A stretch of 59,818 bases of DNA from Methanobacteriota archaeon (GTDB lineage Archaea > Halobacteriota > Syntropharchaeia > Alkanophagales > Methanospirareceae). Location of the stretch: NCBI GenBank assembly GCA_034660015.1, contig JAYEII010000142.1, positions 1 to 59,818 of the forward strand, in the 5' to 3' direction. Position numbers and translations under genes: made by a program. Below are positions 1 through 53,025 of the stretch, one piece after another; position 1 is the first letter of the stretch, and each line of letters opens with the position of its first letter. The notes beneath the pieces were generated by a model. It was not told the origin of the DNA. It worked only from the letters and a program-made list of their open reading frames with translations, and did no database searches.

Positions 1-27
1 CAGATGAAGACAAGTTCTCGATATAGT

Positions 28-139
28 CAGGATTCAGGATACAAGATGCAGGATGCAGGATGCAGGATGCAGGATGCAGGATACAGGATACAGGATACAG
101 GATACAGGATACAGGATACAGGATGCAGGATACAAGATA
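28..139. repeat. 16 tandem copies of heptamer CAGGATR (CAGGATG/CAGGATA/CAAGATG variants); 5' arm of an imperfect inverted repeat enclosing the four-helix-bundle gene
   Basis: Read directly from 28-139. A complementary arm lies at 534-567. The first ~50 codons of track ORF 4..534 are only this array translated. Confidence 0.9.
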
Positions 140-153
140 CAGGGAGGAGGAGG

Positions 154-534
154 ATGATGGCTTTTCAGACGTATAAGGATTTGGAAATATATCAGTTAAG
201 TCATGATTTGGCAATTGAAATGCATAAGGTAAGCCTCAGCTTGCCGAAATTCGAGTTATATGAAGAAGGGAGCCAACTGAGGAGATCTGCTAAGGCAATT
301 CCTGTGAATATCGTTGAGGGATTTGGACGCCGCCGATATAAAAAAGAATTTATCCGATTTCTTACATTTGCTCTGGCATCCTGCGATGAAACAAAGGAGC
401 ATCTTAAAATCTTGTATGAGACAGAGGCAGTCAATGATGACGATATTTTTAATAGCTTTATCAGGAGGTATGAAGATTTAGGACGGAAAATCCACAATTT
501 CATTAAAGCTGTGGAATCTGGTCATAAATCATAA
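154..534 (+). CDS. four-helix-bundle protein of the '23S rRNA intervening sequence protein' family
   Basis: GGAGG-rich RBS at 142-153, then ATG at 154. Family-like segments YQLSHDLAIEMHKV, GSQLRRSAKAIPVNIVEGFGRR and ASCDETKEHL. About 126 aa, the typical size. Confidence 0.75.
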   Translation: MMAFQTYKDLEIYQLSHDLAIEMHKVSLSLPKFELYEEGSQLRRSAKAIPVNIVEGFGRRRYKKEFIRFLTFALASCDETKEHLKILYETEAVNDDDIFNSFIRRYEDLGRKIHNFIKAVESGHKS

Positions 535-567
535 TCCTGTATCATGTATCTTGCATCATGCATCTTG
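534..567. repeat. 3' arm (AATCCTGTATCATGTATCTTGCATCATGCATCTTG) complementary to the CAGGATR array
   Basis: Its reverse complement reads CAAGATGCATGATGCAAGATACATGATACAGGATT, a degenerate CAGGATR/CAAGATR array. It starts at the stop codon of the enclosed gene. Confidence 0.7.
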
Positions 568-584
568 GAACCTGGTGATTAAAA

Positions 585-1139
585 ATGGGCTTCGGAACTA
601 TATTCGCTACCATTGCTATGGTCGTGATAATTGGTATTTCCTCTTACCTGTTCATGACAGGCGCTCTGTTCACCATGGATACGTTATCCAGCTCACTAAA
701 AATAGCGAATGAAATAGATAATGAACAGCTAAAAACAGAAATAGAAATTGGGGATGTGGTTGTAAAAACATCAAACCCTGGCTCAGGAAGTTCCGATATA
801 AATGTTTCTATCAATAACACTGGCTCCACGAAGATATTAAAGTCCGAGTTCGAGCATATAGACGTGTTCGTCTATTATCATAACTACACGTCAGCCGGGG
901 AAAATATCACCATCCACCGGGGGATACCTTACAATGATACTAATTATAGTGCATTGCAGGGTAACGAATGGACCGTGGTGGACATCACGCCGGATCTGAT
1001 AAACCCGCGAATATTTGACCCTGATGAGCAGATGAAAATCGTGATACGGGTTGAACCTGCGATAAACAGCACGATGCAGAACGGGAACTGGACAAAAATA
1101 GTTATGCCAAACGCAGTTTCGGCTTCCAAATATTTCTAA
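585..1139 (+). CDS. archaellum accessory protein, FlaF/FlaG (ArlF/ArlG) family
   Basis: N-terminal TM helix (FATIAMVVIIGISSYLFMTG) followed by a beta-rich soluble domain, about 184 aa. It lies upstream of flaH-flaI-flaJ. The sequence alone does not distinguish F from G. Confidence 0.6.
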   Translation: MGFGTIFATIAMVVIIGISSYLFMTGALFTMDTLSSSLKIANEIDNEQLKTEIEIGDVVVKTSNPGSGSSDINVSINNTGSTKILKSEFEHIDVFVYYHNYTSAGENITIHRGIPYNDTNYSALQGNEWTVVDITPDLINPRIFDPDEQMKIVIRVEPAINSTMQNGNWTKIVMPNAVSASKYF

Positions 1140-1473: not shown

Positions 1474-1860
1474 ATGCCGATGAAAAGTTACAAATATAGG
1501 GCGATAACTGAGAAGATAATTGGAGCAGCCCAAAAAGTACACAATACGCTTGGTTATGACTTTTTAGAGAAAGTATATCAAAATGCGCTCGTTATTGAAC
1601 TTCGAACGCTGGGATTTGATGTGGAAGTGGAACAGCCCATAGCAGTTCAGTATAGAGATGAAATCGTTGGTAATTATGTCGCCGATATTGTCGTCGAAGG
1701 AAAAGTCATTCTCGAAATAAAAGCCGTAAAAGAATTGTCAGAAATTCACGAGGTTCAGCTCGTCAATTATCTTAAAGCAACCGGTATTGAAGTGGGTCTT
1801 CTAATTAACTTTGGTAGGTCTGTAACTGTGAAACGCCGTGTGATGGACAAGAAAAAATAA
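1474..1860 (+). CDS. GxxExxY family protein (PD-(D/E)XK nuclease fold)
   Basis: LGYDFLEKVYQNAL near the N-terminus, ADIVVEGKVILEIKA (D..ExK-type core), QLVNYLKATG and GLLINFG. About 128 aa, the typical size. Confidence 0.85.
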   Translation: MPMKSYKYRAITEKIIGAAQKVHNTLGYDFLEKVYQNALVIELRTLGFDVEVEQPIAVQYRDEIVGNYVADIVVEGKVILEIKAVKELSEIHEVQLVNYLKATGIEVGLLINFGRSVTVKRRVMDKKK

Positions 1861-2977: not shown

Positions 2978-4789
2978 ATGCCAAGCATAGAACTGCCTTT
3001 TGAGCATAATAAAGTAGATATTAATGAAGACCCGCATGACCTGACGCGGTGTGGGTTATACCAGCTATTGCCATCCGAGGGTAAGAAACACGTTGAGGAA
3101 AGCAAACACGTTCTCCAGTATTTACACATGCTTCCTTCGGAAAACATTGGAACACCAAAATTCTATCCGAAACTTACGCGGAAAATGAAGGCTATAAAGC
3201 GACCAAATTTAGTCTATCCCGTAAATGAAGACATATCCGTGCATATATGCCCTGACAAAGAGGATTCGAGGGACTATTACATTCCTATCGAGCCTGTTGT
3301 TTTCAATAGCTTTGATGGCTTGATTGAAGAGGTAGAGAGAAAAATATCGGTACTGGTGGATACATACGATGAGCCGGAAAACGCCGAGCAGAAAAGGGTT
3401 ATTCTTACGAGCTGCATAGATGAGGTGTGCGAAATAAATACAGAGCCAAACGGGGGGGGTAATGGTAAGTGGAATGGTAATGGTAATGGTAATGGTAATG
3501 GTAATGGTAATGGTAATGGTAAAATCCAGAAGCTTATATCTAAATTCTGGGGTAGCTATGGAAATGGTAAAAAAGTATCTGTAACTCCTTTCGAGCTTAA
3601 GGCAATAAAATACCTTATGATAAGGGATAAAGTGGGGTTAGGCGTTTTGGAGCCTTTTATGCATGACCCGAACATCGAGGATATATCCTGCTCCGGGTTA
3701 GGGAACATATTCATAGAGCATAAGATATTCGAGTCGTTAAAAGCACCGGTAAAGTTTGTAGATAAAAAGGACTTAGACGCATTCGTCATAAAAATGTCGG
3801 AGAAGATAGGAAAACCAATCTCTTACTTCAATCCAATTATGGATGCCGTTCTGCCTGATGGTTCACGTATAAACATCATACTTGGAGAAGACATATCGAA
3901 GAAAGGGTCGAATTTTACCATACGGAAATTCGCCGAAACTCCTCTCAGCGTCCTTCAACTGATAGAATTTGGCACGTTTGATTACGTAATGGCGGCGTAT
4001 TTCTGGATGTGTCTTAGTTCGGGGCTGAATTGTTTCATTGCAGGAGAGACCGCATCAGGAAAAACAACCACAATGAACGCTATTACTACTTTCATCCCTC
4101 CCAGGGCGAAGATAGTGTCCATCGAGGAAACCCCCGAACTCCAGGTTCCACATCACAACTGGATACGAGAAATTACAAGACCCGTGCAGGGTAAGGGAGA
4201 AGGAGAAGGGTCGAGAGTAGAAATGTTCGACCTGCTGAAGGCTTCCTTGAGACAGCGTCCAAACGAGATAATTGTGGGTGAGATACGGGGTCAGGAAGGG
4301 CTGATAGTATTCCAGGGAATGCAGACCGGGCATCCCGCCATGTCCACTTTCCACGCCGCGAACGTCGAGAAGCTCATTCAAAGGCTTACCGGAGACCCCA
4401 TAAATGTCCCTAAGACTTATGTGGACAACTTGCATTTCGTCGTCATGCAAAATGCCGTAAAAGGTCCTGACGGCAGAATGATGAGAAGAATAACGAACGT
4501 AAGTGAAATAGTAGGATATGACCCTTATACCGAAAGTTTCAATTTTATCGAAGTTTTCAGGTGGAATGCGGAAAATGACCTCTTTGAATTCACCGGAAAC
4601 ATGAATTCGTATCTGCTGGAGCGAATAATAGCACCGAAAAAAGGTATTCCCGCGGGTAACGTGCGAAAGATATATAAGGAGCTGGAGAAGCGCGCGAGGA
4701 TGCTGAAGAAAATAAACGATTCCGGAGTTACGGGCTTCTACGAGCTCTTCGCCGTACTATCCAAGATGGACGCCGAGGGGGTGCTGTAA
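2978..4789 (+). CDS. flaI: archaellum assembly/motor ATPase FlaI (ArlI), type II/IV secretion ATPase superfamily
   Basis: Walker A GETASGKTT, plus SIEETPEL, IVGEIRG and FQGMQTGH motifs. About 603 aa. Translationally coupled to flaH and flaJ. Confidence 0.92.
   Translation: MPSIELPFEHNKVDINEDPHDLTRCGLYQLLPSEGKKHVEESKHVLQYLHMLPSENIGTPKFYPKLTRKMKAIKRPNLVYPVNEDISVHICPDKEDSRDYYIPIEPVVFNSFDGLIEEVERKISVLVDTYDEPENAEQKRVILTSCIDEVCEINTEPNGGGNGKWNGNGNGNGNGNGNGNGKIQKLISKFWGSYGNGKKVSVTPFELKAIKYLMIRDKVGLGVLEPFMHDPNIEDISCSGLGNIFIEHKIFESLKAPVKFVDKKDLDAFVIKMSEKIGKPISYFNPIMDAVLPDGSRINIILGEDISKKGSNFTIRKFAETPLSVLQLIEFGTFDYVMAAYFWMCLSSGLNCFIAGETASGKTTTMNAITTFIPPRAKIVSIEETPELQVPHHNWIREITRPVQGKGEGEGSRVEMFDLLKASLRQRPNEIIVGEIRGQEGLIVFQGMQTGHPAMSTFHAANVEKLIQRLTGDPINVPKTYVDNLHFVVMQNAVKGPDGRMMRRITNVSEIVGYDPYTESFNFIEVFRWNAENDLFEFTGNMNSYLLERIIAPKKGIPAGNVRKIYKELEKRARMLKKINDSGVTGFYELFAVLSKMDAEGVL
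3458..3522 (+). repeat. hexanucleotide microsatellite (AATGGT)n inside flaI, encoding a (Asn-Gly)n tract
   Basis: By my count there are 8 perfect AATGGT units at 3473-3520, preceded by degenerate GGTAATGGTAAGTGG. The repeat is in frame. Confidence 0.9.
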
Positions 4790-4790
4790 A

Positions 4791-6341
4791 ATGCAAAATG
4801 CGAAGAAGCGCAAATTGAAAAAGAAGAATTCAATACATATTGATATTGGGGCTCAAATAAAAGAGGACCAGGCAATGATGCTTGACCTTCTTAACATACT
4901 CACCTATATGTCATCCATTGCAACTTCGAATGTAAGCAGGGATAAGATCTTCGAGTTAGCTGCCCAACAAGAGGGAATTACGGCGAAATCAATGAAAAAA
5001 ATACACCTGTTAGCGAATAATTACGGATATGATTATTCGCACGCAAGCAAGTTGGCTGCGGATGAGGCGCATCATCCTGATCTTAAAGACTTCCTTACCC
5101 GGCTCTCGAACGCATTAGGGCTGGGGGAGGAGGAAGAGAAATTCTTTCGCGACGAAACGGAAAGAATGGTAGAAGTGTACACAAATAAATACCAGAGCGA
5201 TGTAGAAACACTGAAGAAGTGGACGGATGGATATGCTGCGCTGCTCGTATCGGTAATACTGGTCATTGCCGTAGTCCTTATAAGCACCATGCTGTTCAAT
5301 ATGGGCGATACAGTTACTACGTCTATTATAGCGGGCGCTTTATTTTGCTTCATTGCTTTTTTCGGCGTTTATGTGCTCTACCGGTCAGCTCCTTACGAGC
5401 TAACGGCGCATTCACTGGAGATAAAATCGAAGGAGCAGGAATTAGCGAGAAAGATGAGCATGATTCTTCTACCCACGACCGGTATTACCGCACTTATTTT
5501 AGTGGTGATAGGCGTGGAACCCTGGATAATATTTCTTGTGGTCGCAGCTTTGCTTGCACCGGTAGGTGTGGTTGGAATAATGGACGAGAAGAAGATAGAA
5601 AGAAGGGACTACGACATATCAACGTTTTTAAAGAGCCTTGGTTCTACTGCTGGAACCGTGGGGGCTACGCTTGCTGTGGCACTGGAGCATCTGGATAAGA
5701 AATCCGTTGCTTCGTTAGAGGAACCTGTAGGTAGGCTGCAGAGACGATTAGTTAACGGAATAAATCCGAAGGTATGCTGGCGTTATTTCTCAGGAGAAAC
5801 GGGGTCCGAATTAATAAACAAATATACAAACGTGTTCTTAGATGCGACAGACCTTGGAGGCAATCCGACAAAGATAGGCGAAATAGTTGCTCACTCTTCA
5901 TTGGGAATAGCCATATTAAGAGCGAAAAGAAAGCTTGTATCCACCGGGTTCATGAATCTTGTAATACCTCTGCATGCGGCGATGGCAGGTATTCTCATGT
6001 TCATATACCGGATAATGTTTTCGTTCAATAATTCAGTAGCAGCGATGATGGAGGAGAAATCAGCAGAGGTCGGGGGAGCGGGGGGGAGTATGCCGACAGG
6101 CATGGGCTTCTTTAATATCGGCGGGACCACTGACCTCGCTTTCATCGCAAATTACGTGACTGTCATTATCCTCATAATAACGATTGCCAATGTGTTTGCG
6201 ACGAAGTTCGCAGTCGGTGGTAGCAACTACACGCTGTGCTTCTATGCTTCTATTTTATTCTTCGTCTCCGCAATCGTTCTGTTCACCATCCCAATAATGG
6301 CAGATAGCATTTTCGGAATACAAATGGGTGCTGGTGGATAA
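4791..6341 (+). CDS. flaJ: archaellum membrane platform protein FlaJ (ArlJ)
   Basis: Polytopic membrane protein of about 516 aa with two TadC/GspF-like halves. Its start is 1 nt after the flaI stop. Confidence 0.85.
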   Translation: MQNAKKRKLKKKNSIHIDIGAQIKEDQAMMLDLLNILTYMSSIATSNVSRDKIFELAAQQEGITAKSMKKIHLLANNYGYDYSHASKLAADEAHHPDLKDFLTRLSNALGLGEEEEKFFRDETERMVEVYTNKYQSDVETLKKWTDGYAALLVSVILVIAVVLISTMLFNMGDTVTTSIIAGALFCFIAFFGVYVLYRSAPYELTAHSLEIKSKEQELARKMSMILLPTTGITALILVVIGVEPWIIFLVVAALLAPVGVVGIMDEKKIERRDYDISTFLKSLGSTAGTVGATLAVALEHLDKKSVASLEEPVGRLQRRLVNGINPKVCWRYFSGETGSELINKYTNVFLDATDLGGNPTKIGEIVAHSSLGIAILRAKRKLVSTGFMNLVIPLHAAMAGILMFIYRIMFSFNNSVAAMMEEKSAEVGGAGGSMPTGMGFFNIGGTTDLAFIANYVTVIILIITIANVFATKFAVGGSNYTLCFYASILFFVSAIVLFTIPIMADSIFGIQMGAGG

Positions 6342-6350
6342 TAAAGTATT

Positions 6351-6439
6351 GACACAGATTAACACAGATGATAAAAATCAACAATGTTAACGTAAATTTA
6401 ACGTAAATAAATCTGCGTAAATCCGTGTTAATCCGTGTC
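6351..6439 (+). repeat. A-type hairpin element plus conserved tail
   Basis: GACACAGATTAACACAGATG...AAATCTGCGTAAATCCGTGTTAATCCGTGTC followed by TTAAATAGGAGGCAGTCGGATATACTTTATGCACAAT. Confidence 0.9.
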
Positions 6440-6500
6440 TTAAATAGGAGGCAGTCGGATATACTTTATGCACAATAAGAAAGAAAAGGAGGAACGTAAA

Positions 6501-7200: not shown

Positions 7201-7210
7201 AATCTTTAAA

Positions 7211-7427
7211 GACACGGATTAACGCAGATTAACACAGATGATAAGAATCAACACGGTAAAACTAAATCACAGTAACAAGAAAGAATAATTTTTGATAATC
7301 GGACGCAGATGAACGCAGATAATCAGGATTTTAAACTTAATTTTGGCACTAAACCGGAAGTTAAACGTAAGGCATTTGATAATTTGAGGAAATAGTTTTC
7401 TGCGTAAATCCGTGTAAATCTGCGTCC
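7211..7427 (+). repeat. composite element: A-type left arm followed by a complete C-type hairpin (7301-7427)
   Basis: GACACGGATTAACGCAGATTAACACAGATG..., then GGACGCAGATGAACGCAGATAATCAGGATTTTAAA...TTCTGCGTAAATCCGTGTAAATCTGCGTCC. The same C-type unit occurs at 18115-18215 and 57989-58081. Confidence 0.85.
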
Positions 7428-7586
7428 TAAATAGGTAGAAGTTATACTTTAAAATTGCAAATGTTGTAAATTTATTTTGTAATATTTAAAATTTTTTATT
7501 GTATTATTCCTTGCTGCACTAAAGAACTACTTATAGCGGTTTTATGAAGGAATAGAAGGCAAATATCGCTTAAAAAAACCGAAAAA

Positions 7587-7946: not shown

Positions 7947-7970
7947 TGCAACAAGAAAAAATAAATTATT

Positions 7971-8042
7971 GACACAGATTAACGCAGATTAACACAGATG
8001 AAAAAATAAATAAATCCGCGTAAATCAGTGTTAATCCGTGTC
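7971..8042 (+). repeat. A-type hairpin element plus tail
   Basis: GACACAGATTAACGCAGATTAACACAGATG...AAATCCGCGTAAATCAGTGTTAATCCGTGTC, then TTAAATAGAAGGCAGTTATCCTTTATGTACAAT. Confidence 0.9.
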
Positions 8043-8081
8043 TTAAATAGAAGGCAGTTATCCTTTATGTACAATAAAAAA

Positions 8082-8360
8082 ATGGAAGAAGAGAAAGAGA
8101 AAATATGGGCTTGGCTAATGCCAAGCGGGAAGATATATAAGGTGGTGACAAACCCGGAGGACGGAACAATAAGCGTTTACAATCCAAACGGGGAGTTGGT
8201 GAAAAAAGATGAGAACCTGAGTGATGCGGCAGTAAGCCTAATAGAGAAGAATTTTCTCGAAACTGTGGCAACGATGGTAGAGGAGAAGGAAGTGGGAACG
8301 GAAACGGGAAAAGAAACCGGAAATGAGCTAGCGGATGAGATAGGGATGTATATAAGATAG
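8082..8360 (+). CDS. small conserved hypothetical protein (paralog of 35318..35590)
   Basis: MEEEKEKIWAWLMPSGKIYKVVTNPEDGTISVY aligns with MEEEKEKTWAWLMPSGKIYKVVTNPGEGTIDVY. Both also end in the related MYIR tail. The track start 8028 is inside the repeat. Confidence 0.65.
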   Translation: MEEEKEKIWAWLMPSGKIYKVVTNPEDGTISVYNPNGELVKKDENLSDAAVSLIEKNFLETVATMVEEKEVGTETGKETGNELADEIGMYIR

Positions 8361-8407
8361 CTCATCAAAAATTCTGTCTGAACAAAAAGAAAAATAAATT
8401 ATTTATT

Positions 8408-8486
8408 GACACAGATTAACGCAGATTAACACAGATGATAAAACTCAACAATGTTAAACTAAAATAAATCCGCGTAAATCCGTGTC
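8408..8486 (+). repeat. A-type hairpin element plus tail
   Basis: GACACAGATTAACGCAGATTAACACAGATGATAAAACTCAACAATGTTAAACTAAAATAAATCCGCGTAAATCCGTGTC. Confidence 0.9.
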
Positions 8487-8619
8487 TTAAATAGAAGGCA
8501 CTAAGTTATACTTTATGTACAATAAAAAGCAAATACAGATAGTTATTTTTCAGATATTGATAAATTATTTTTTTGCTATACATAACTATTTATGTCATAT
8601 TTAAGAGAATCATATTAAT

Positions 8620-12087: not shown

Positions 12088-12225
12088 GACACAGATTAAC
12101 GCAGATTAACACAAACCTTTCTTTCAAAAAGAAAGCTTTACCAAAGAAATTTGTTTTTCTTTTAGCACAGGTTTTCTTTTTTTGAAAAAGAAAAAGTGTT
12201 GCGTAAATCAGTGTAAATCCGTGTC
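12088..12225 (+). repeat. B-type (long) hairpin element plus tail
   Basis: GACACAGATTAACGCAGATTAACACAAACCTTTCTTTCAAAAAGAAAG...AAAAAGTGTTGCGTAAATCAGTGTAAATCCGTGTC. Confidence 0.9.
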
Positions 12226-18034: not shown

Positions 18035-18040
18035 ATTATA

Positions 18041-18215
18041 GACACAGATTAACGCAGATTAACACAGATGAAAAAAATCAACAATGTTAAAGAACAAGAA
18101 AATTTTTGATGATCGGACGCAGATGACCGCAGATAATCAGGATTTTAAATATAAGGCATTTGATTGATAATTTGAGGAAATAGTTTTCTGCGTAAATCCG
18201 CGTAAATCTGCGTCC
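18041..18215 (+). repeat. composite element: A-type left arm plus complete C-type hairpin (18115-18215) plus tail
   Basis: GACACAGATTAACGCAGATTAACACAGATG..., then GGACGCAGATGACCGCAGATAATCAGGATTTTAAA...TTCTGCGTAAATCCGCGTAAATCTGCGTCC. Confidence 0.85.
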
Positions 18216-22300: not shown

Positions 22301-22324
22301 GAATAAAAAGAAAAATAATTTATA

Positions 22325-22699
22325 GACACAGATTAACGCAGATTAACACAGATAAACACAGATAGTGAAATTGCTATATCCCCAAAATTCACCGCAGAGC
22401 ACACGGAGACCGCAAAGGCAAAACAAAAAAATAAATTGTTGACACAGATTAACGCAGATTAACACAGATGATAAAAATCAACAATATCAAACTTAAATAA
22501 GTCCGCGTAAATCAGTGTAAATCTGTGTCTTAAATAGAAGGAAGTTATACTTTATATACAACCAGAAAGCCTAAACAATGATTGGAACCGTCTTAAAACT
22601 CTGCGTACTCTGCGCTCTCCGCGGTGATAAATCACTTGATTTTTAGACTGTGCCCGTTCAACGTAAGTAAATCTGCGTAAATCAGTGTTAATCCGTGTC
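22325..22699 (+). repeat. nested mosaic of repeat modules (outer A-type arms enclosing a complete inner A-type element at 22441-22529 plus T- and S-type modules)
   Basis: Left arm at 22325-22360, T module at 22364-22425, complete element with tail at 22441-22563, reversed S module at 22588-22655, right arm at 22667-22699. Confidence 0.8.
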
Positions 22700-22747
22700 T
22701 TAAATAGAAGGTAGTTATACAGAACAATATTATATCATTATTGTACT

Positions 22748-24168: not shown

Positions 24169-26256
24169 ATGACAAAAGTAAGAATTTTAATCGTGGAAGA
24201 CGAAGCCATCGTAGCCGAAGACCTGGCGATGGCGATTACCGATATTGGTTACGAAGTGGTGGGGCGTGCTGGCAGCGCAGAGGAAGCCGTAAAAAAGGCT
24301 GTTGAACTCAAGCCGGATTTGATATTGATGGATATTGTTCTTAGAGGGCGAGAAAACGGCATAGGCACTTCTCATGAGATAAAAGAGAAGATGGATATTC
24401 CCATTATATTTCTTACCGCATTTTCGGATAGAGAGTTATTAGATAGAGCCAAAAGCGTCGAGCCGTATGCTTACATTGTTAAACCGTTCCAGGAGCGGCA
24501 GCTTTTCGCATCCATAGAAATGGCTCTTCACAAAAACAGGATGGAGAAGAAATTAAAAGAGAGTGAGAAATTTAGTTCCAGCCTGCTGAGCAATTCGCCC
24601 AATCCCATAATAGTTGTCAATCCAGATACTTCAGTAAGATATGTGAATCCTGCTATGGAAAAGCTAACCGACTTTTCTGCTGCCGAGCTCGTTGGCAAAA
24701 AAGCGCCATATCCCTGGTGGACGGAAGAAACGCTGCCGCAGACCAGTAAGGACCTGAAAGAAGCTATGCAGAAGGGGGTGACGCAACTTGAGGAGCTTTT
24801 TCAGAAGAAGAACGGGGAGCGTTTCTGGGCTGAGATAACTTCTACACCCGTGAAAAGCAATGGCGAGTTCAAGTATTACCTGTCAAACTGGGTTGACATC
24901 ACCGAGCGCAAGCGTGCGGAGGCGAAGATAAGGAAATTAAGTTCCGCGGTTGAGCAGGCGATTGACGGTATAGCGATGTATGACTTAGAACAAAAACTGA
25001 GCTATGTGAACGATGCTTTTGCACTGATGCACGGTTATTCACCGGAAGAGATGATAGGAATGAAAGTAGAGAATCTACATGATGAGGAACGGATGAATGA
25101 ATACAGGAGTGGTATGAACCAGATAATGACACAGGGTTCATGGGCAGGAGAAACATGGCATCTCAAAAAAGACGGCACACTTTTTCCCGCATTCATGAGC
25201 GTTAGTTTATTGAAAGGCGATGATGGAAACCACCCGGGGATCCTGGCAGTTGCAAGAGACATCACCAAGCAGAAGCGAGCGGAGGTGAGACTGCAGGAAA
25301 GAGAAGCACAATATCGCGGCATCTTTAATTCTGCTACCGATTCATTACTTATCTTCGATTATTACGGTAATATTGAAGAGGTAAATCCTCAAGCATGTGA
25401 AATGTATGGTTATCTTTATGAGGAGTTGATAACACTATCGGGCAAGGATATCGTTCATCCCGATTATTATCATATTTTTGAACAATTCAAACGAGACGTT
25501 CAGACCACCGGTGAATTTCACGCGGAATCGGTAGACGTCCGTAAGGATGGCACTCCATTTAATATCGAACTCGGAGGAGCGGGATTTAATTATAAGGGGG
25601 AACCACATTTGTTGGCTATCGTAAGAGACATCACCGAGCGGAAGAAGGCGGAGGAAGAAGTAAAGAGATCCCATGAGTTCCTTGCGACTATCATTGATAA
25701 CATTCCTGATATAGTCACCATTAAGGACCTGCAGTACCGCCTCGTATTGGTCAATCAGGCATATTGTAACATAACAGGGCATACGAAGGAGGAAGTAATT
25801 GGGAAAAAAGCCTACTGGGAAAAAGATAAGGAAATATTTCAAACAGGGAAAGGGTTGGACCTCCCTGAACAGTCTTATACTGACCTTGAAAGTATGTGCC
25901 ATTATATATCTGTTAAAAAAGCGCCATTAACAGACGAATCAGGAAAACCAACTCATGTTCTGACAATAAGTCGTGACTTCACCAAGCGTAAGCATGCGGA
26001 GGAGAAGGCGAAAGAGGCTTATAGACTAAGAGAACACTTTCTAAAAGAAACGTCACATAGAATTATCACCCCGGTGACTATCATCGGAGGAAACGCAGAA
26101 TTACTGCTTGATTCCCGCAATCTCGGCGAAGCCCAAAAAGCGAGAATCAGGACTATACGAGAGAAGAACGATGAAGTCCAGAAACTGGTGATGGACGCGC
26201 TGGCGGGAAGGTATTTAAAGGAAGAGGAAGGTGAGGAACAAGAAGATAAATTATAG
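24169..26256 (+). CDS. REC-PAS(x4)-DHp protein: receiver plus PAS sensor with a HisKA-like phosphoacceptor region but no ATPase domain
   Basis: REC (ILIVEDE...LMDIVL...KPF), four PAS modules with DITERK linkers, and H-box LKETSHRIITPVTIIGGNAELL. The ORF stops at the TAG of the next repeat element. Confidence 0.8.
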   Translation: MTKVRILIVEDEAIVAEDLAMAITDIGYEVVGRAGSAEEAVKKAVELKPDLILMDIVLRGRENGIGTSHEIKEKMDIPIIFLTAFSDRELLDRAKSVEPYAYIVKPFQERQLFASIEMALHKNRMEKKLKESEKFSSSLLSNSPNPIIVVNPDTSVRYVNPAMEKLTDFSAAELVGKKAPYPWWTEETLPQTSKDLKEAMQKGVTQLEELFQKKNGERFWAEITSTPVKSNGEFKYYLSNWVDITERKRAEAKIRKLSSAVEQAIDGIAMYDLEQKLSYVNDAFALMHGYSPEEMIGMKVENLHDEERMNEYRSGMNQIMTQGSWAGETWHLKKDGTLFPAFMSVSLLKGDDGNHPGILAVARDITKQKRAEVRLQEREAQYRGIFNSATDSLLIFDYYGNIEEVNPQACEMYGYLYEELITLSGKDIVHPDYYHIFEQFKRDVQTTGEFHAESVDVRKDGTPFNIELGGAGFNYKGEPHLLAIVRDITERKKAEEEVKRSHEFLATIIDNIPDIVTIKDLQYRLVLVNQAYCNITGHTKEEVIGKKAYWEKDKEIFQTGKGLDLPEQSYTDLESMCHYISVKKAPLTDESGKPTHVLTISRDFTKRKHAEEKAKEAYRLREHFLKETSHRIITPVTIIGGNAELLLDSRNLGEAQKARIRTIREKNDEVQKLVMDALAGRYLKEEEGEEQEDKL

Positions 26257-26397
26257 ACACGGATTAACGCAGATTAACACAAACCTTTCTTTCAAAAAGA
26301 AAGTTAACTTTACCAAAGAAATTTGTTTTTCTTTTAGCACAGGTTTTCTTTTTTTGAAAAAGAAAAAGTGTTGTGTAAATCAGTGTAAATCAGTGTC
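26256..26397 (+). repeat. B-type (long) hairpin element
   Basis: GACACGGATTAACGCAGATTAACACAAACCTTTCTTTCAAAAAGAAAG...AAAAAGTGTTGTGTAAATCAGTGTAAATCAGTGTC. Confidence 0.9.
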
Positions 26398-26434
26398 TTA
26401 AATAGAAGGAAGCTATACTGTATATACAATAAAA
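26397..26434 (+). promoter_or_regulatory. conserved element tail (CTTAAATAGAAGGAAGCTATACTGTATATACAATAAAA); candidate promoter
   Basis: ATG 26435 lies 38 nt after the first C, which predicts a leader of about 6 nt. Confidence 0.35.
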
Positions 26435-26827
26435 ATGGAATATACTATTTTGCTGGTGGATGATGAAGAGTCGCTTCACGAATTACTGCCTATTTTTCTG
26501 GCGAGGGACAAGAAGCACACGTTGTTCACGGTGCACTCTGCCATGAACGGAGAGGCAGGAGTTGAAATGTACGGCAAACTGGCAAGAGAAGGACATAAAC
26601 CGGATCTCGTGCTGATGGACCTCCGAATGCCAGTGATGAACGGTGTTGAGGCGACCATAAGGATAATTAAAAATGACCCAAAAGCGAATATTTACCTGTT
26701 CACCGCCTACACCGGAACAGAGGTAGAAATAGATGCACTCGAGGCTGGCGCAAAAGGGACAATAAGCAAAATCGCTGATTGGAATAAGACGGTGGAAATA
26801 ATTATAAATATTCTGGAATCTCGATAA
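26435..26827 (+). CDS. single-domain response regulator (CheY-like receiver)
   Basis: LLVDDEE...VLMDLRMPVMNG...FTAY...K. Confidence 0.85.
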   Translation: MEYTILLVDDEESLHELLPIFLARDKKHTLFTVHSAMNGEAGVEMYGKLAREGHKPDLVLMDLRMPVMNGVEATIRIIKNDPKANIYLFTAYTGTEVEIDALEAGAKGTISKIADWNKTVEIIINILESR

Positions 26828-26831
26828 TATA

Positions 26832-26954
26832 GACACAGATTAACACAGATGATAAAAATCAACAATGTTGAGCGTAAATTATAGTTATTCCAGTAATCTT
26901 GTGGTTATTTTTCGGAAAAACGATAATCCGCGTAAATCCGTGTTAATCTGTGTC
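26832..26954 (+). repeat. A-type hairpin element with an extended loop
   Basis: GACACAGATTAACACAGATGATAAAAATCAACAATG...CCAGTAATCTTGTGGTTA...AATCCGCGTAAATCCGTGTTAATCTGTGTC. Confidence 0.85.
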
Positions 26955-26968
26955 TTAAAAAAAAAGAG

Positions 26969-27364
26969 CTAAAGGCATCGGGTTAGGGCTTTTTCTATTG
27001 CATCCATGAGTCTTTTAATGGTAAACGGTTTTTCGATAAAATCTACAACCTGTTGTGAAGCAACCAAACCTTCTTCCTCCGCCTCAGGCAGATGAACTGC
27101 GGTAAGGAAAATAATTTTTACACTCGATAATCTACTGTCTTTTTCTATTGCCCTTAGTATTTCCTTAGTTGTCACTCCAGGCATCATTATATCAAGCAGA
27201 ATGACATCAGGAATTTCGTCGTGTTTTAATTTGTTCAAGCACTCTTGCCCATCTTTTGATTTAATTGTTTTAAAATTGTTCGCAACTAAAATTTGCGCGA
27301 GCTTGTTCAACACATCTGGTTCATCATCTACAACCATAACGGTTTTAGTTTCAGTATTAGTCAT
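26969..27364 (-). CDS. single-domain response regulator (CheY-like receiver)
   Basis: VMVVDDEPD...ILLDIMMPG...FLTA...KPF. Confidence 0.85.
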   Translation of the reverse strand: MTNTETKTVMVVDDEPDVLNKLAQILVANNFKTIKSKDGQECLNKLKHDEIPDVILLDIMMPGVTTKEILRAIEKDSRLSSVKIIFLTAVHLPEAEEEGLVASQQVVDFIEKPFTIKRLMDAIEKALTRCL

Positions 27365-27369
27365 TGTTT

Positions 27370-27442
27370 AACCACCAGATTACACAGATTTACACGGATT
27401 TATTTATTTTATCATCTGTGTTAATCTGCGTTAATCTGTGTC
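27370..27442 (-). repeat. A-type hairpin element in minus orientation, immediately upstream of the minus-strand receiver gene
   Basis: The minus strand reads GACACAGATTAACGCAGATTAACACAGATGATAAAATAAATAAATCCGTGTAAATCTGTGTAATCTGGTGGTT, then AAACA, then the ATG. Confidence 0.9.
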
Positions 27443-27468
27443 TATAAAATTTAATTGTTTTTTTTTAA

Positions 27469-27540
27469 GACACTGATTTACACAGATGTACACGGATTTA
27501 TTTATTTTATCATCTGTGTTAATCTGCGTTAATCTGTGTC
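27469..27540 (-). repeat. A-type hairpin element in minus orientation (second tandem copy; a partial third copy lies at 27565-27584)
   Basis: The minus strand reads GACACAGATTAACGCAGATTAACACAGATGATAAAATAAATAAATCCGTGTACATCTGTGTAAATCAGTGTC. Confidence 0.9.
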
Positions 27541-27710
27541 TATAAAATTTAATTGTTTTTTTAAGACACTGATTTACACAGATTTTTTCTTTTCTTTGTT
27601 TGCTTAGGGTACTTTTAACGGTATGCTTTCTGAAGTAGGTTAAGTATAATTAACATAAAATCTATTATAGGTTAAATACAAATTTAAATTTAAATATACA
27701 AAACTAAAAC

Positions 27711-34568: not shown

Positions 34569-34572
34569 AGGA

Positions 34573-34682
34573 GGGACTAGGGACTAGGGACTAGGCAATA
34601 GGGGTAAGGGTTTAGTCCCTTGTCCCTATTGGCTATTGGCTACGTGGCTATGTGGCTATTCGCTACTTGGCTATTCGCTATT
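34573..34682. repeat. G-type hairpin: (GGGACTA)n/(GGCAATA) arm against a (CTATTGG/CTATTCG/CTATGTGG)n arm
   Basis: GGGACTAGGGACTAGGGACTAGGCAATAGGGGTAAGGGTTTAGTCCCTTGTCCCTATTGGCTATTGGCTACGTGGCTATGTGGCTATTCGC..., followed directly by TTTTAGGAGGAGGTGAG (RBS) and cheW. Confidence 0.85.
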
Positions 34683-34705
34683 TTAGGAGGAGGTGAGAAA
34701 TAAAA

Positions 34706-36532: not shown

Positions 36533-36649
36533 TTTCCCTCACTCTAATATTATCTAATTGCATTCCTTATATAAATAGATTCATTCATCAATGCTATATT
36601 TAACTCCCTCTATATGTTCTCGAATAATTTTTACAGCTTCGAGTGTTTT

Positions 36650-36689
36650 CATCTGCGTTAATCTGTGTTAATCTGCGTTAATCTGTGTC
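36650..36689 (-). repeat. A-type left arm (three units) in minus orientation, at the 3' end of the decayed ATPase gene
   Basis: The minus strand reads TAG-ACACAGATTAACGCAGATTAACACAGATTAACGCAGATG. The TAG is the stop codon of the ORF. Confidence 0.85.
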
Positions 36690-37345
36690 TATAATTTATT
36701 TTCTATTTTCTTGTCATGCCCTAACAGCCACTTCCAGAGCGGCACAAAACGTATTTTTTTACCTTTTATTTCCTCCTCTTCCTCATAGTCCCATGTGATA
36801 ACGAGCAAATCAGTGCATTTTAACTCTTTGCTTGCTTTTATCAATTTACCAATATTCTCCGAGAACCTGAATCCCCGCACATAATAGAATCCCGTATCTA
36901 TTATATAGACTTTTCTTACAGACCGGATTTGCTTAAAAGCAGAGTATCCAAACTTTTTTTTTCCAATTTCTCTATCTCTCTTATCCCAAATCTCCTTACT
37001 ATGTCTTTTGCAGTTATATCCTCGAAATAATTCGTTAAGAGCGCTCTTTTTCTTGTGGGTGAATCAGAGAGCACCACTTCGGGGAATCCACCATATTTCA
37101 AATAGATGTCAAACAGGCTAAGTATTTTTATTCTGTTTTTAAATTGTTAACGTACAAATAAGCGATGGATGATTTCCCTGCTCTTCTCACGCCAGATAAA
37201 ACAAGAGCTACTTTGGCACCAAATAAACTTTTCATTCTGGTTAGATATGCGGGTCTATCAATCAGTTTTTCATCGAAATTCCCCCAGAAGTTTCAATCTA
37301 CTAATATTTCCAATATCTCTCTTTCGTTCATATTAAATATATTTG
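36689..37345 (-). pseudogene. decayed DUF4143-type AAA ATPase gene (fragments in several frames, internal deletions)
   Basis: C-terminal fragment KASKELKCTDLLVITWDYEEEEEIKGKKIRFVPLWKWLL, middle fragment GGFPEVVLSD...YFEDITAKDIVRRF, and an N-terminal fragment with a Walker A remnant read antisense to 37165..37350. Confidence 0.75.
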
Positions 37346-41219: not shown

Positions 41220-44090
41220 ATGTCAGAAGTAGAAAAGAACAGGGGAATTGGTGAAGGGGTCATTACGCCGGCAACCAGCGATGTAAACCAGTTTACAAAA
41301 GCGCAGTTGCAAAGCGAACTCGATAGAAAGGAACAGGAGTTACGAGAACTCCAACAGGACATGGATAATTTGGTAAGCGAGGCTGAAATGCTTACCAAAG
41401 CAGCAGTCGAGGGGAAATTAGATACAAGAGGTGACGTGACGAAGTTCAAAGGTGGGTCAGCGGAAATAGTGCAGGGCGTGAACGACACGCTCGATGCCGT
41501 AATAGGACCGTTGAATGTAGCGGCGGAATACGTGGACAGGATATCAGCGGGGGACATCCCGGCGGAGATAACGGACGAATACAAGGGCGACTTCAACGAG
41601 ATAAAGAACAACCTGAACAAGGTCATCATCTCTTTGAACGCACTGGTAGCAGAAGCGGGAATGCTTAACGAAGCAGCAGTGGGAGGTAAACTGGACACGA
41701 GAGGAGACGCGAGCAAGTTCAAGGGCGATTATGCGGGAATAGTGCAGGGCATGAACGAGACGCTGGACGCGGTTATAGGACCGCTGAACGTGGCGGCGGA
41801 ATACATGGACCGAATATCAGCGGGGGACATCCCGGCAGAGATAACGGATGAATACAAAGGCGACTTCAACGAGATCAAGAACAACCTGAACAAGGTCATC
41901 ATCTCTTTGAACAGCTTAGTGGCGGAAGCGGGAATGCTAAACGAAGCCGCAGTGGAAGGTAAACTGGACACGAGAGGAGACGTGAGCAAGTTCAAGGGCG
42001 ATTACGCGGGGATAGTGCAGGGCATAAACGAGACGCTGGATGCCGTTATCGGGCCGTTGAACATGACCGCGGAATACGTGGACCGAATATCAGCGGGGGA
42101 CATCCCGGCGGAGATAACGGACGAATATAAAGGTGACTTCAACGAGGTGAAGAACAACCTGAACAAGGTCATCCGGTCTTTGAATGGCTTGCTGGAAGAG
42201 ACAGGGACGCTTGCCAATGCCACAGTGGAAGGCAAACTGGAGGCGAGAGGCGACGTGACGAAGTTCAAAGGCGGGTATGCGAAATTGGTACAGGGCATAA
42301 ACGAGACGCTGGATGCCGTTATCGGGCCGTTGAACATGACCGCGGAATACGTGGACCGAATATCAGCGGGGGACATCCCGGCGGAGATAACGGACGAATA
42401 TAAAGGTGACTTCAACGAGGTGAAGAACAACCTGAACAAGGTCATCCGGTCTTTGAATGGCTTGCTGGAAGAGACAGGGACGCTTGCCAATGCCACAGTG
42501 GAAGGCAAACTGGAGGCGAGAGGCGACGTGACGAAGTTCAAAGGCGGGTATGCGAAATTGGTACAGGGCATAAACGAGACGCTGGATGCCGTTATCGGGC
42601 CGTTGAACATGACCGCGGAATACGTGGACCGAATATCAGCGGGGGACATCCCGGCGGAGATAACGGACGAATACAAAGGTGACTTCAACGAGGTGAAGAA
42701 CAACCTGAACAAGGTCATCCGGTCTCTGAATGGCTTGCTGGAAGAAGTAGGAATGGTTGGAGAAGCCGCGGTGGAAGGAAAACTGGAGACGAGGGGAGAC
42801 GTGACAAAGTTCAAAGGCGAGTATGCGAAATTAGTGCAGGGGGTAAACGATATGGTAGATGCTGTGGCAAGTCCTATCCAGGAGGTTATCCGAATGTGCG
42901 ACGCACTTGCTGAAGGGGATCTTTCAGAGCGGATAAAAATAGAAGCACAGGGGGATTTCCTGAAACTGACCGAGACATTGAATAATTTCGGGGAGGAGTT
43001 GCAAACGATTATCAATGACATCAGTAAAGTAGCACAGAACATGGCAGCAGGGAACCTGAGCACAGATTTCACTTCCGAGACACCAGGAGAATTCAATGCG
43101 ATACGCGAGAACATCAACCAGGCAAATGCGAGTTTATCGGATTTAATCGGTGAGCTGCAAGGCACAGTGCAGGATGTCGCATTAATAGGTAAAGAATCTG
43201 CATCATCCGTAGAGCAGGTGAATTCAGGCATGCAGCAGATTTCTTCTGCATCGCAGCAAATAGCAAAGGGCGCTCAGGAAACCTCGGGCACCGTAAACGA
43301 ATCGGCAAAGGAGATTAAGGAGACAAACGCAGTGTTACAACAGGTGCAGTCAAATGCAGAAGAATCGAATAAGTTCGCCGTGGAGGGTGCAGAAAGCGCA
43401 AAAGAGACGAATGAAGCGGCTGAGAAATCATCAGAAGGGATGAAGGAAATACAGGAGGCTATTGGCAGTACTGTGGAGGTAATAAAAAACCTCGGCAGTT
43501 CGTTAGAGCAAGTAGGAAAAGCAACAGATATGATAGAGGGCATTGCCGACCAGACGAATCTGCTTGCTTTGAATGCCGCGATAGAAGCTGCACGTGCCGG
43601 AGAACATGGACGTGGCTTTGCCGTCGTTGCCGAAGAAGTGCGAAAACTGGCAGAGAACTCAAAGCAGTCCACCGCAGAGATAGATACAATGATAAAGGGC
43701 TTGCAAGTGGAGATGGACAAAGTAATAAAAGCCACAGACAGCGTCACGCAGCGTGCCGATGTAGGTCGTGAAGACCTCGAAAAAGCGGTAACGAGTGTAG
43801 AAAAAACAGCAGGCATGATCGAAGACATCAAGAACAGAATGCTGCAGATTACTGAGGGTGCAAGAAAAGGAGCAGAAAGCATAGAAAGAGTATCGAAGGG
43901 TGTGGACGAGATTGCAAGCTCTTCAGAAGAGAGTGCATCGTCATCAGAAGAAAGCTCTTCTGCCGTAGAGGAGCAAACGGCAGCCATAGAACAGCTCAGC
44001 GGTGGCATGCAGAAACTATCGGAAATCTCCGACCAGGCAATAGAGATGATTGGGAAATTCAAACTAAGGGAGGGCGAGAAACAGGTGTAA
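41220..44090 (+). CDS. soluble (no TM) methyl-accepting chemotaxis protein with an N-terminal array of ~91-aa HAMP-like repeats
   Basis: No hydrophobic helices. About 5.5 repeats of ...[63 protein letters not shown]. The C-terminal MCP signalling domain is nearly identical to that of 32457..34568. Confidence 0.9.
41405..42870 (+). repeat. 273-bp tandem repeat array (~5.5 units) inside the MCP gene; the units from ~42025 to ~42700 are essentially identical
   Basis: For example GTGGAAGGCAAACTGGAGGCGAGAGG occurs at 42225 and again at 42498 (period 273 nt = 91 codons). Long stretches recur base-for-base. Confidence 0.9.
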
Positions 44091-44215
44091 AAGAGCCGTA
44101 TTTGTTTACCGCCGAGATCACGGAGAGCGCGGAGATGACGAAAAAGACTCTCTGTGTTCTCTGCGGGCTCAGCGGTAAACTATTTTCTATTTTAGGAGGA
44201 GGTGAGAGAAAAAAA

Positions 44216-44515: not shown

Positions 44516-44519
44516 AAGA

Positions 44520-44606
44520 GGCAATAGGGATTGGGCAATAGGCAATAGGCAATAGGGCAGGGCAATAGCTGCCTATTGGCTATTCGCTATTTGGCTATTG
44601 GCTATT
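44520..44606. repeat. G-type hairpin ((GGCAATA)n against (CTATTGG/CTATTCG)n)
   Basis: GGCAATAGGGATTGGGCAATAGGCAATAGGCAATAGGGCAGGGCAATAGCTGCCTATTGGCTATTCGCTATTTGGCTATTGGCTATT, followed by TTAGAAGGAGGTGA (RBS). Confidence 0.85.
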
Positions 44607-44626
44607 TTAGAAGGAGGTGATAAAAA

Positions 44627-52446: not shown

Positions 52447-52590
52447 GTTCAAAAATTGCTAAAATTGCCGGAATTTCAAAGATTGCCTAAAAGTTCAAAA
52501 ATTGCCGGAATTTCATTGAGTTCAAAAATTGCTAAAATTGGCTTAACATAACTTTATGAATTCTTTGAAATTTATGAAATTTATGAATTC
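52447..52590. repeat. F-type repeat block and hairpin (TTCAAAAATTGC / CCGGAATTTCA units against TTTATGAATTCTTTGAAATTTATGAAATTT)
   Basis: GTTCAAAAATTGCTAAAATTGCCGGAATTTCAAAGATTGCC...GTTCAAAAATTGCTAAAATTGG CTTAACATAAC TTTATGAATTCTTTGAAATTTATGAAATTTATGAATTC. The loop resembles that of 10186-10260. Confidence 0.8.
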
Positions 52591-52965
52591 TCACTCATAG
52601 TTTGATCTCTTGGAAGTGCTGTAAGAGGAAGTGAAAATTGCAAGGAGTTCACTGCATTCTTTATATACCTGTTTGACATCTGTCTGGGGGAGCATCTCAG
52701 CTTCGACAGCAACCTCAAGCCAGTACTGGGTTTCACTTGCTTCTTTCATGCATATGCTAATCTTGTTCCTGAAATCCGCTTTCGACACGGACCGATTTGC
52801 TTCACGATAATTCGCACCAACGGAAGTTCCTGCTTTAACCATTTGGTACTTAACGACCTTCCCGGCTTCCTTATTCGGCAATTTACCCGCGAGTTTGATA
52901 ATCTGAACCGCAAATTGCTTTGTCCGCTTTTCAAGCTCTTTACCCTTCTCTTTTCTGCTAACCAT
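52591..52965 (-). CDS. four-helix-bundle protein of the '23S rRNA intervening sequence protein' family
   Basis: Start taken at MVSRKEKGKELEKRTKQFAV. VVKYQMVKAGTSVGANYREANRSVSKADFRNKISICMKEASETQYWLEV is a family hallmark. Confidence 0.8.
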   Translation of the reverse strand: MVSRKEKGKELEKRTKQFAVQIIKLAGKLPNKEAGKVVKYQMVKAGTSVGANYREANRSVSKADFRNKISICMKEASETQYWLEVAVEAEMLPQTDVKQVYKECSELLAIFTSSYSTSKRSNYE

Positions 52966-53025
52966 TCTAATTCCCAATTTTTGAAATTTATGCAATTTTT
53001 GAATTCTTTGAAATTTTCTTATAGA
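52966..53025. repeat. F-type repeat arm upstream of the four-helix-bundle gene, overlapping the 3' end of cheR
   Basis: AATTTTTGAAATTTATGCAATTTTTGAATTCTTTGAAATTTTC. On the minus strand it encodes the last cheR codons, YKKISKNSKIA*. Confidence 0.75.

Follow-up and report, generated by a model that had tools for sequence, protein, structure and literature searches.

The window analyzed here, a 59,818-nucleotide stretch of DNA from a Methanobacteriota archaeon (contig JAYEII010000142.1), was found to carry near its left end, between two ArlF/ArlG-like archaellum stator genes, a gene for a four-helix-bundle (FHB) protein enclosed by two inverted arrays of tandem heptanucleotides. Positions 27-580 are probably one copy of a small mobile gene cassette without its own promoter, acting by the mechanism proposed below. 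The part of this account which holds that hairpin and open reading frame (ORF) form a mobile unit is very likely correct. Coordinates are positions in the window, and L-numbers denote loci obtained from scans of metagenomes, genomes and plasmids.

Organization of the cassette and its product

The elements recognized in the initial annotation, namely a gene enclosed by 16 CAGGATR heptamers on the 5' side and by a complementary array from its stop codon onward, with a strong ribosome-binding site between array and ATG, were all recovered at their positions (Table 1). The left array was scored by Tandem Repeats Finder (TRF) at 28-143 with period 7, 16.6 copies, 91% matches, a score of 169 and the consensus CAGGATA. 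Its unit reads CNNGATR in the sense orientation, a form that holds family-wide and is also found upstream of homologues. The right array reads ATCCTGT ATCATGT ATCTTGC ATCATGC ATCTTGG AACCTGG (TRF rows 541-567), beginning with the final A of the FHB stop codon TAA. At the position equivalent to GGGAGGAGGAGG, archaeal homologues carry GGAGG or GGAGGGG, and the protein starts of homologues match the residue encoded at 157 (MAFQTY).

Table 1. Features of the cassette, its neighbors and related elements in the window
Feature	Position	Strand	Remarks
Upstream ArlF/ArlG-like stator gene, 3' end	1..26	+	3-26 encode ...DEDKFSI; stop TAG 24-26; cut by window edge
Left arm	28..143	+	16.6 tandem heptamers CAGGATR; variants CAGGATG, CAAGATG, CAGGATT
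Shine-Dalgarno (SD) run GGGAGGAGGAGG of the cassette gene	142..153	+	3-6 nt before ATG 157
FHB gene	157..534	+	125 codons/125 aa; alternative ATG 154; stop TAA 532-534
Right arm	534..575	+	six heptamers, reverse complement of left-arm unit
SD GGTGAT (574-579) and 5-nt spacer	574..584	+	serves downstream host gene; from right end of insertion
Downstream ArlF/ArlG-like stator gene	585..1139	+	PF01917 E 9.6e-9; ArlF and ArlG matches below cut-off; right border of insertion
GxxExxY / PD-(D/E)XK gene	1474..1860	+	TIGR04256, PF13366; between complete 10-mer hairpins
Second cassette, other subfamily	52447..53020	-	FHB gene 52591..52965

The best inverted repeat joined 56-96 with 534-574 (41 nt, 85% complementary). 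When the arms alone were folded as RNA, 48-90 and 533-575 formed a duplex of 37 bp at -59.9 kcal/mol, compared to -24.8 +/- 3.6 kcal/mol for shuffled arms (z -9.6) and -38.9 kcal/mol for the best among 580 other window segments. The predicted fold of 1-600 retained the long-range arm stem (z -4.87). Three consecutive CNNGATR units were matched 17 times in the 59.8-kb window compared to 0.05 expected, at 28-139 on the plus strand (14 matches in the left arm) and at 533-567 on the minus strand, and nowhere outside the arms. This confinement, together with the stem statistics, indicates that the arrangement is real and far beyond chance. An Rfam scan of 1-2200 placed no family on the arms and gave no rRNA match; the sub-threshold chance hits lay on neighboring 10-mer hairpins. 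An upstream extension by exact-protein look-up returned a 1072-nt Logan contig alone, which ended inside the array.

The product encoded at 154-531 matched PF05635 (96.4 bits with a cut-off of 33.8, E 1.5e-27) and TIGR02436 (101 bits with a cut-off of 24, E 4e-29). The AlphaFold (AF2) monomer model, with a pLDDT of 92, consists of four long helices, and Foldseek aligned it with 2GSC (XCC0516; TM 0.86) and 2RLD (BT_0352; TM 0.74); 2GSC was also matched by phmmer (E 2.4e-6). A TM of 0.74-0.76 was obtained to Avd (4DWL, 8UBE), the accessory protein of diversity-generating retroelements (DGRs), at a sequence identity of 11-12%. By these profile matches and this predicted fold, the cassette product is an FHB protein of the S23p / 23S_rRNA_IVP / Avd-like family, and the initial naming of the gene as a 23S intervening-sequence four-helix bundle is borne out. 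For XCC0516 a homopentameric toroid is known (PMC4990558, citing Lin et al. 2006). Among cassette copies dN/dS was 0.07-0.21, which indicates that the protein is under purifying selection.

The cassette is inserted between two archaellum stator genes

The gene that ends at the left edge of the window was identified through orthologous loci. Its end matches the C-terminus of the ORF at 858..1337 of L092 (...SDEDKFSI*), for which the ArlG and ArlF matches were below cut-off, and that of other relatives. A metagenome scan with the 585-1139 protein gave 19 related loci, and the orthologues of the gene at 585 in L092-L107 were 55-89% identical (89% in L092). In L092 the stop codon TAA of the stator ORF is followed by 2 nt (AA) and then by the ATG of the 585-gene orthologue. 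A cassette-free junction was found in six relatives (L092, L100, L101, L102, L105 and L107), where the intercistronic gap is empty and measures 2-5 nt, compared to the 550 bp (27-580) that fill it in the window. At empty sites (L092, L102, L107) the genes are joined as TAA-AA-ATG without an SD, in contrast to the GGTGAT that the insertion brought with it in the window. As judged by these orthologous junctions, the cassette is an insertion between two genes in the sense orientation.

The initial annotation had placed the element in a protein-coding operon just upstream of flaF/G and had proposed that an interrupted gene would be found further upstream. The protein-coding context stands, and the position is corrected, since the cassette lies not upstream of both genes but between two ArlF/ArlG-like genes. 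No gene was interrupted, because the insertion is intercistronic. With that stop codon at 24-26 and the array beginning at 28, there is no room for an archaeal promoter. Since the cassette occupies, in the sense orientation, the gap between two translationally coupled stator genes, it is presumably read as part of their transcript. The named neighbors in the window are the ArlF/G-like genes, the GxxExxY gene, a KaiC-like ATPase (flaH position) and FlaI.

The same junction is occupied in other relatives by hairpins of a 10-mer family, and in L093 and L098 also by a GxxExxY (PD-(D/E)XK) gene. In a distant relative (L106, 2780-3000) a 10-mer hairpin at this junction encloses two to three CAAGATG/CAGGATA units together with an SD-like GGAAAGGGG, and the FHB gene is absent. 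These units may be the remnant of a lost cassette.

Close copies occupy other operon sites

Proteins 85-94% identical to the window FHB protein were found at three unrelated operon sites on Methanophagales-type contigs: between an ABC-2 permease (ABC transporter) gene and rpoK (L002, L013, L014), between a radical-SAM gene and the methyltransferase gene preceding mcrBGA (L003-5, L012, L015), and between cheX and cheB (L006-11, L031). At all three sites CAAGATG/CAGGATA/CATGATG units and GGAGG precede the gene, and ATCCTGC/ATCTTGG/ATCATGT units directly follow its stop codon. One metagenome-assembled genome (MAG) carries two copies (L017 and L031). From these repeated occurrences it follows, at the level of sequence, that ORF and arms travel together as a unit. 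Such close homologues with the same arrays, the empty orthologous sites, the second copy and its relatives with arrays of their own, and a 23S rRNA insert of Azospirillum with a heptamer stem (see below) all uphold the initial description of an autonomous unit of hairpin plus ORF. For ANME-type archaea, these sites document that insertions within core operons (archaellum, chemotaxis, beside mcr) are frequent and tolerated.

The arrays vary between orthologous insertions in which the ORF is nearly identical, and they are thus unstable microsatellites: one orthologous cassette has four CAAGATG units in L006/7/9/10 and five in L008/L011, and array length and composition differ between L013 and L014 and between L012 and L015.

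In a Deltaproteobacteria MAG (L030, about 3850-4480) an FHB gene 59% identical to that of the window is accompanied by the same CAGGATG/CAAGATG unit as in ANME-1-type archaeal cassettes. This sharing may reflect transfer between syntrophic partners.

The architecture is shared across archaea and bacteria

One genome per species was taken for a scan of the family, which gave 80 loci with 48-94% identity to the window protein, from Methanophagales, Thermoplasmata, Planctomycetota, Bacteroidota, Verrucomicrobiota, Ignavibacteria, Desulfobacterota and others. A strict detector, which required at least three units with at least 80% identity at lag 7 within 150 nt upstream or 120 nt downstream, found period-7 arrays upstream of 40/75 FHB genes, downstream of 29/75 and on both sides of 20/75, compared to 11/224, 11/224 and 1/224, respectively, for control ORFs in the same loci. 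By a looser measure in which periods 5-12 were tested, 7 was the best on both sides in most loci. Upstream units fit CNNG(A/T)TR on the sense strand (examples are CTCGATA, CCGGATG, CTGGATG, CGGGATA, CAGGATA and, in Chitinophagaceae, CTGGTTA), and downstream units fit it as the reverse complement. Units with a GAT core and with a GTT core were never mixed within a locus and mostly track the protein clade. Agreement at the NN positions between the two arms of a cassette was 0.230 compared to 0.100 +/- 0.020 in permuted loci, a value reached in 0/2000 permutations; by this statistical comparison the two arms co-evolve.

In about 640 kb of flanks, almost all matches to three CNNGATR units directly flank the FHB gene. 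Dispersed solo CNNGATR arrays, the prediction for a REPIN-like element, were absent elsewhere in the window and few in the loci. The word depth of the arrays in metagenomes is high, and is compatible with solo arrays and with other cassettes alike. The upstream neighbor is co-directional in 65/73 loci and the downstream neighbor in 54/68. The distance from the upstream stop codon to the FHB start has a median of 69 nt, most of which is array, so that, with co-directional upstream neighbors, there is no room for a promoter.

FHB genes of the same subfamily without heptamer arrays were seen in three Thermoplasmata MAGs: one is flanked by a unique inverted repeat of ~25 nt (L044), one has longer direct repeats on both sides (L028) and one has no clear array (L050). 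Searches of IMG/VR with single-sequence and alignment queries found no viral relative of the FHB protein, and three viral contigs with four CAGGATR units had no FHB gene nearby.

A second copy in the window and other subfamilies

The second FHB gene of the window (52591..52965; PF05635 75.5 bits, E 4.6e-21; TIGR02436 93.7 bits) has a repeat family of its own, as the initial annotation had proposed, and its strand is corrected here to minus. The 9-mers AAATTTCAA/AAATTGCAT are arrayed upstream (52966-53020). On the downstream side, 9-mers of the same sense (52553-52590) come first and their complement (52447-52540) after them. The corresponding TRF rows are 52450-52587 and 52976-53017. One relative of the second copy occupies the same cheR|cheD site (L111), another lies in a polysaccharide operon with inverted 9-mers (L113), and a third, 70% identical, is flanked by inverted 7-mers AATTTCG / ATTCGCA (L115). 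Paralogs without flanking inverted repeats would have spoken against an autonomous unit; the second copy and its relatives were found to have arrays of 9-mers or 7-mers. In L113 (1980-2200) a fragment encoding the FHB N-terminus has been duplicated along with the 5' 9-mer array, a rearrangement at the arrays.

Distant FHB genes, 33-43% identical and annotated as 'four helix bundle protein' or 'S23 ribosomal protein', are similarly flanked by other heptamers on RefSeq/GenBank plasmids of cultured cyanobacteria: GGAACAG ... CTGTTCC in Nostoc edaphicum, GGGTGTA ... ACACCCT in Calothrix and N. punctiforme, GGGAAGA ... CTTTTCC in Geminocystis, GGCAGAA ... CCTTCTG in Stanieria, and GGTGACA ... CTGTCAC in Anabaena sp. 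90 pANA02 (L132), where the gene lies inside cas6|cas4. The GGTGACA/GGGAACA array of L132 has about 20 units, and an FHB gene with an array of 16 AAAAGCT units lies between the same two genes on Pseudanabaena galeata pPg_01 (L130). Where PF05635/23S_rRNA_IVP is reported in association with cas or defence genes, the cause may be no more than a cassette able to enter any operon.

In Xanthomonas campestris, the GGGAATC repeat #15 (622956-622983) overlaps the start annotated for XCC0516 and is separated from bccP (XCC0517) by 6 nt (PMC4692102 supplement). XCC0516, the FHB protein of PDB 2GSC, thus sits directly behind a GGGAATC array. The adjacency of repeat #15 to this FHB gene received no comment in PMC4692102.

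Relation to 23S rRNA intervening sequences

On a 750-kb replicon of Azospirillum lipoferum (L131), an unannotated bacterial large-subunit rRNA gene (RF02541, 627 bits, model positions 765-1665) was found to contain an insert at 448-916 with an FHB ORF between arms at 448-483 and 881-916. The arms are 36 nt long, 86% complementary and built of tandem heptamers (CAGAGGA CGGATGA CAGAGGA CGGAGGA ... / ... TCCGTCC TCTGTCT TCTGTCA TCCGTCT). In Coxiella, the intervening sequence (IVS), described as a selfish element, has a 28-bp terminal stem whose loop contains an S23p ORF, and RNase III cleaves within the stem (PMC4990558). The 23S IVSs of Leptospira, Coxiella, Brucella and Azospirillum likewise have in common an S23p/PF05635 ORF looped out by a long stem of terminal inverted repeats, as the initial annotation had stated for this family. 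Because the Azospirillum IVS combines an FHB ORF with heptamer arms and the Coxiella IVS has the same build, the window cassette and the classical ORF-bearing 23S IVS are, on the grounds of shared architecture, the same kind of element at different landing sites.

The IVSs are sited in helix 9, 25 or 45 of the rRNA, whereas the flanks of the window cassette are archaeal protein-coding genes outside any 23S rRNA gene, so that by location it is not a 23S IVS. The Coxiella ORF is reported to be decaying and untranslated, in contrast to the window gene with its strong SD and purifying selection. The Coxiella stem is cut by RNase III, whereas the host of the window cassette probably lacks this enzyme.

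Proposed mechanism and alternative explanations

The cassette consists, in order, of a left arm, its own SD, the FHB gene, a right arm that starts in the stop codon and a new SD (GGTGAT) for the next gene. In the mechanism that we propose, it would be transcribed from the promoter of the host operon. By pairing, the arms would form a stem of ~37 bp with the ribosome-binding site and the ORF in its loop. Paired in the transcript, they would set the cassette apart from the host message; as the cis-acting part, paired in RNA or in single-stranded DNA, they would define the ends of the element for spread and maintenance. The arrays would lengthen and shorten by slippage, and in bacteria the stem would be cut as in IVSs. 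The FHB protein would be the trans-acting partner that recognizes the repeated duplex, a role proposed because its structural relative Avd is a nucleic-acid-binding scaffold in the DGR reverse-transcriptase ribonucleoprotein. Both the processing of the stem in this archaeon and the binding of the FHB protein to the arrays are suggested by analogy, and each is, in our estimate, a tentative possibility.

Several results weigh against the account of a cassette with paired, protein-recognized arms. A strand-specific wobble test on the best arm alignments of 50 loci gave no RNA signature of either strand: 56 mismatches would be G.U on the sense strand compared to 48 on the antisense strand (p 0.49), besides 125 transversion mismatches. 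The arms are so unequal, with 16.6 and 6 units, that most of the left arm is unable to pair. A bulge-helix-bulge motif was sought in the predicted stem and was absent, only 1x1 mismatches being present. Arrays that are one-sided or direct rather than inverted occur in L022, L026, L029, L039 and Pseudanabaena. Unit sequences differ between subfamilies, so that there is no universal recognition motif and recognition, if any, would be subfamily-specific. We know of no demonstration that an FHB protein binds to heptamer arrays, and to our knowledge most archaea are without RNase III. Comparison of the filled site (...ATATAG T, cassette, GATTAAAA ATG) with the empty site (...ATATAA AA ATG) gave no clear target-site duplication, at most TA or TAA being duplicable, and no transposase or recombinase lies within the cassette unit. 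In the contigs of the sole RNA-type run (X21), an FHB-like sequence was present and no ends were readable; word depth in this run was ~200-400 over the FHB region compared to ~14-20 over the stator gene, which may reflect paralogs or DNA.

The first alternative, which we regard as unlikely, is a non-autonomous transposon resembling a miniature inverted-repeat transposable element (MITE), in which a transposase encoded elsewhere would bind the arrays, as terminal or subterminal repeats, in double-stranded DNA and the FHB gene would be cargo, for example for defence or counter-defence. Inverted terminal arrays, presence or absence at an orthologous site and several insertion sites are all features of such elements, and the lack of a G.U bias fits a role at the DNA level. 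ORF-less hairpins of other repeat families (the 10-mer family and AGGCAAT/CTATTGG heptamers) are common in the window, and relatives hold the GxxExxY gene at the same junction. Against cargo status, the FHB gene is the only constant partner of the arrays across archaea and many bacterial phyla, and CNNGATR arrays almost never occur away from it, either in the ~640 kb of flanks or in the 60-kb window. No transposase shared across hosts is evident (no co-occurrence analysis was run), no clear target duplication was seen, and inside 23S rRNA an element of this build functions with a stem that acts at the RNA level.

A second alternative is an IVS-like element acting in RNA only: a double-strand-specific RNase would excise the cassette from the host transcript, spread would occur by ordinary recombination or horizontal transfer, and the protein would be unrelated to the repeats. 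The build is the same as that of genuine IVSs, including the heptamer stem of Azospirillum, and RNase III excision of an S23p IVS is documented (PMC4990558). The cassettes are co-directional with their operons without room for a promoter, and their two arms co-vary. However, the sense strand has no G.U excess, and pairing alone leaves unexplained both the period of 7 in nearly every subfamily and the conservation, within a subfamily, of a GATRC-type core across phyla. The archaeal host is probably without RNase III, and general recombination would not easily yield precise intercistronic insertions at several sites. On this evidence we consider an RNA-only element quite improbable.

[quoted passage not shown]

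The reading of the left array as a translated QDAGYR-type N-terminal extension of the FHB protein (ORF 4..534), raised in the initial annotation, was rejected and has a negligible probability. The frame is open from ATG 4 to 534, and some gene callers ran homologues into the array, with products of 134-151 aa; a 7-nt repeat without stop codons is, however, open in every frame. As ATG 4 lies inside the upstream gene in a different frame, the array is not a coding extension. Moreover, the strong SD stands directly before ATG 154/157, MAFQTY is the start of most homologues, and one 7-nt unit, enough to shift the frame, separates the orthologous cassettes of L006 and L008.

Comparison with known systems

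An excised insert encoding an 'S23p' protein is present in certain bacterial 23S rRNA genes. Among long simple repeats, tandem heptanucleotides are the most over-represented in many prokaryotic genomes, and a 'four helix bundle protein' whose role is unknown occurs in many copies in Bacteroidota, cyanobacteria, Planctomycetota and some archaea. The cassette would tie these three long-separate puzzles together, gene and inverted heptamer arrays forming one unit that moves among operon sites and for which the rRNA insert is one landing place.

Heptamer arrays have been described as abundant, intergenic and variable in copy number, often in convergent pairs able to form stem-loops, with function unknown (STRR; PMC4692102; PMC4679880). 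The window-type cassettes resemble these repeats (STRR; GGGAATC / GGGGA(C/T)T of Xanthomonas and Nostoc, PMC4692102; TAACTGA, PMC4679880) in having tandem 7-nt units between co-directional genes and copy numbers that differ from strain to strain. They differ in that PMC4692102 and PMC4679880 neither link the repeats to FHB genes nor treat them as the ends of a gene cassette; CNNGATR is also a different sequence, and the Xanthomonas arrays are mostly reported regardless of a nearby FHB gene.

S23p/FHB proteins are known from IVSs (PMC4990558) and, as Avd, from DGRs (PMC10053308). Avd has the same fold, and PF05635 is said to resemble it (PMC10053308). By the titles of entries 8UBE and 8UBB, Avd is part of the DGR reverse-transcriptase ribonucleoprotein, whereas no reverse transcriptase, which in a DGR is adjacent along with a template/variable repeat pair, is among the named genes neighboring the window cassette. 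Repetitive extragenic palindromes (REP) with their transposase genes (RAYT; REPIN) and MITEs are alike in having short inverted-repeat hairpins after operon stop codons and presence/absence polymorphism, and in REP/RAYT a small gene is likewise flanked by inverted copies of its associated repeat. In that system, however, the protein is a Y1 (HUH) transposase and the repeats are single palindromes dispersed genome-wide, in contrast to the PF05635 four-helix bundle and the tandem arrays found here, which are not dispersed in the window or the loci. Integron cassettes share a promoterless, co-directional ORF expressed from an upstream promoter and a structured recombination site. They have a single 3' attC and insert at attI next to intI, whereas the present cassettes have two array arms and scattered intercistronic sites; no integrase was found among the genes neighboring the window cassette.

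A full-text literature search found no paper that joins S23p/FHB genes with heptamer arrays or that describes FHB cassettes in operons or in archaea; its coverage was incomplete and an earlier description is possible. What is new here is an IVS-type element outside rRNA and in an archaeon, and it points to a general rule of broad interest, if confirmed. In its widest form, which we put forward as a speculative proposal, FHB proteins and prokaryotic heptanucleotide arrays would be two halves of one selfish system in bacteria and archaea. An FHB oligomer would recognize the 7-nt duplex of its own subfamily, the unit would insert in transcribed, harmless sites (intercistronic gaps, rRNA helix tips, cas operons), and ORF-less arrays (STRR, GGGAATC) would be decayed or non-autonomous derivatives. 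Such a system, if true, would jointly explain the 23S IVS ORF, the over-representation of heptamers and the many FHB paralogs. Culturable carriers (Xanthomonas XCC0516, Bacteroides BT_0352, Nostoc) allow tests of repeat binding, stem cutting and movement.

Other repeats and genes in the window

Hairpins of a 10-mer repeat occur in many intergenic regions of the window, each composed of two to four copies of ACACAGATTA, a loop and two to four copies of TAAATCYGTG, with one A.A mismatch per unit. They were located at 1140-1470, 1860-1950, 6340-6440, 7210-7430, 7965-8490, 12090-12225, 18040-18215, 22320-22700, 26250-27590, 36648-36690, 47215-47300 and 53950-54045, and amount to at least 15 forward and at least 16 reverse arms in 60 kb. 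The word depth of the 10-mers in metagenome contigs was 100 to 10,000 times that of neighboring genes. The homologue of the GxxExxY gene at the stator-gene junction in L093 and L098 is 47% identical and has the same hairpins. This gene looks like a second small-gene family acting as an array-bounded cassette.

ORF-less heptamer hairpins (AGGGACT/AGGCAAT ... CTATTGG/CTATTCG) were found in the chemotaxis region at 34569-34690, 44519-44610 and 44940-45052, placed precisely between one gene's stop codon and the SD of the gene that follows. Two of them lie within a 411-nt tandem duplication that repeats a small ORF (44102-44515, 44627-44962). At 41387-42850, inside a 956-aa ORF (41220-44090), a 273-nt unit is repeated 5.4 times with 89% matches, and these repeats are probably 91-aa modules in a chemoreceptor-like protein. 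A (GGTAAT)n hexamer run at 3458-3522 encodes GNGNGN... in the N-terminal part of FlaI/ArlI (2978-4789).

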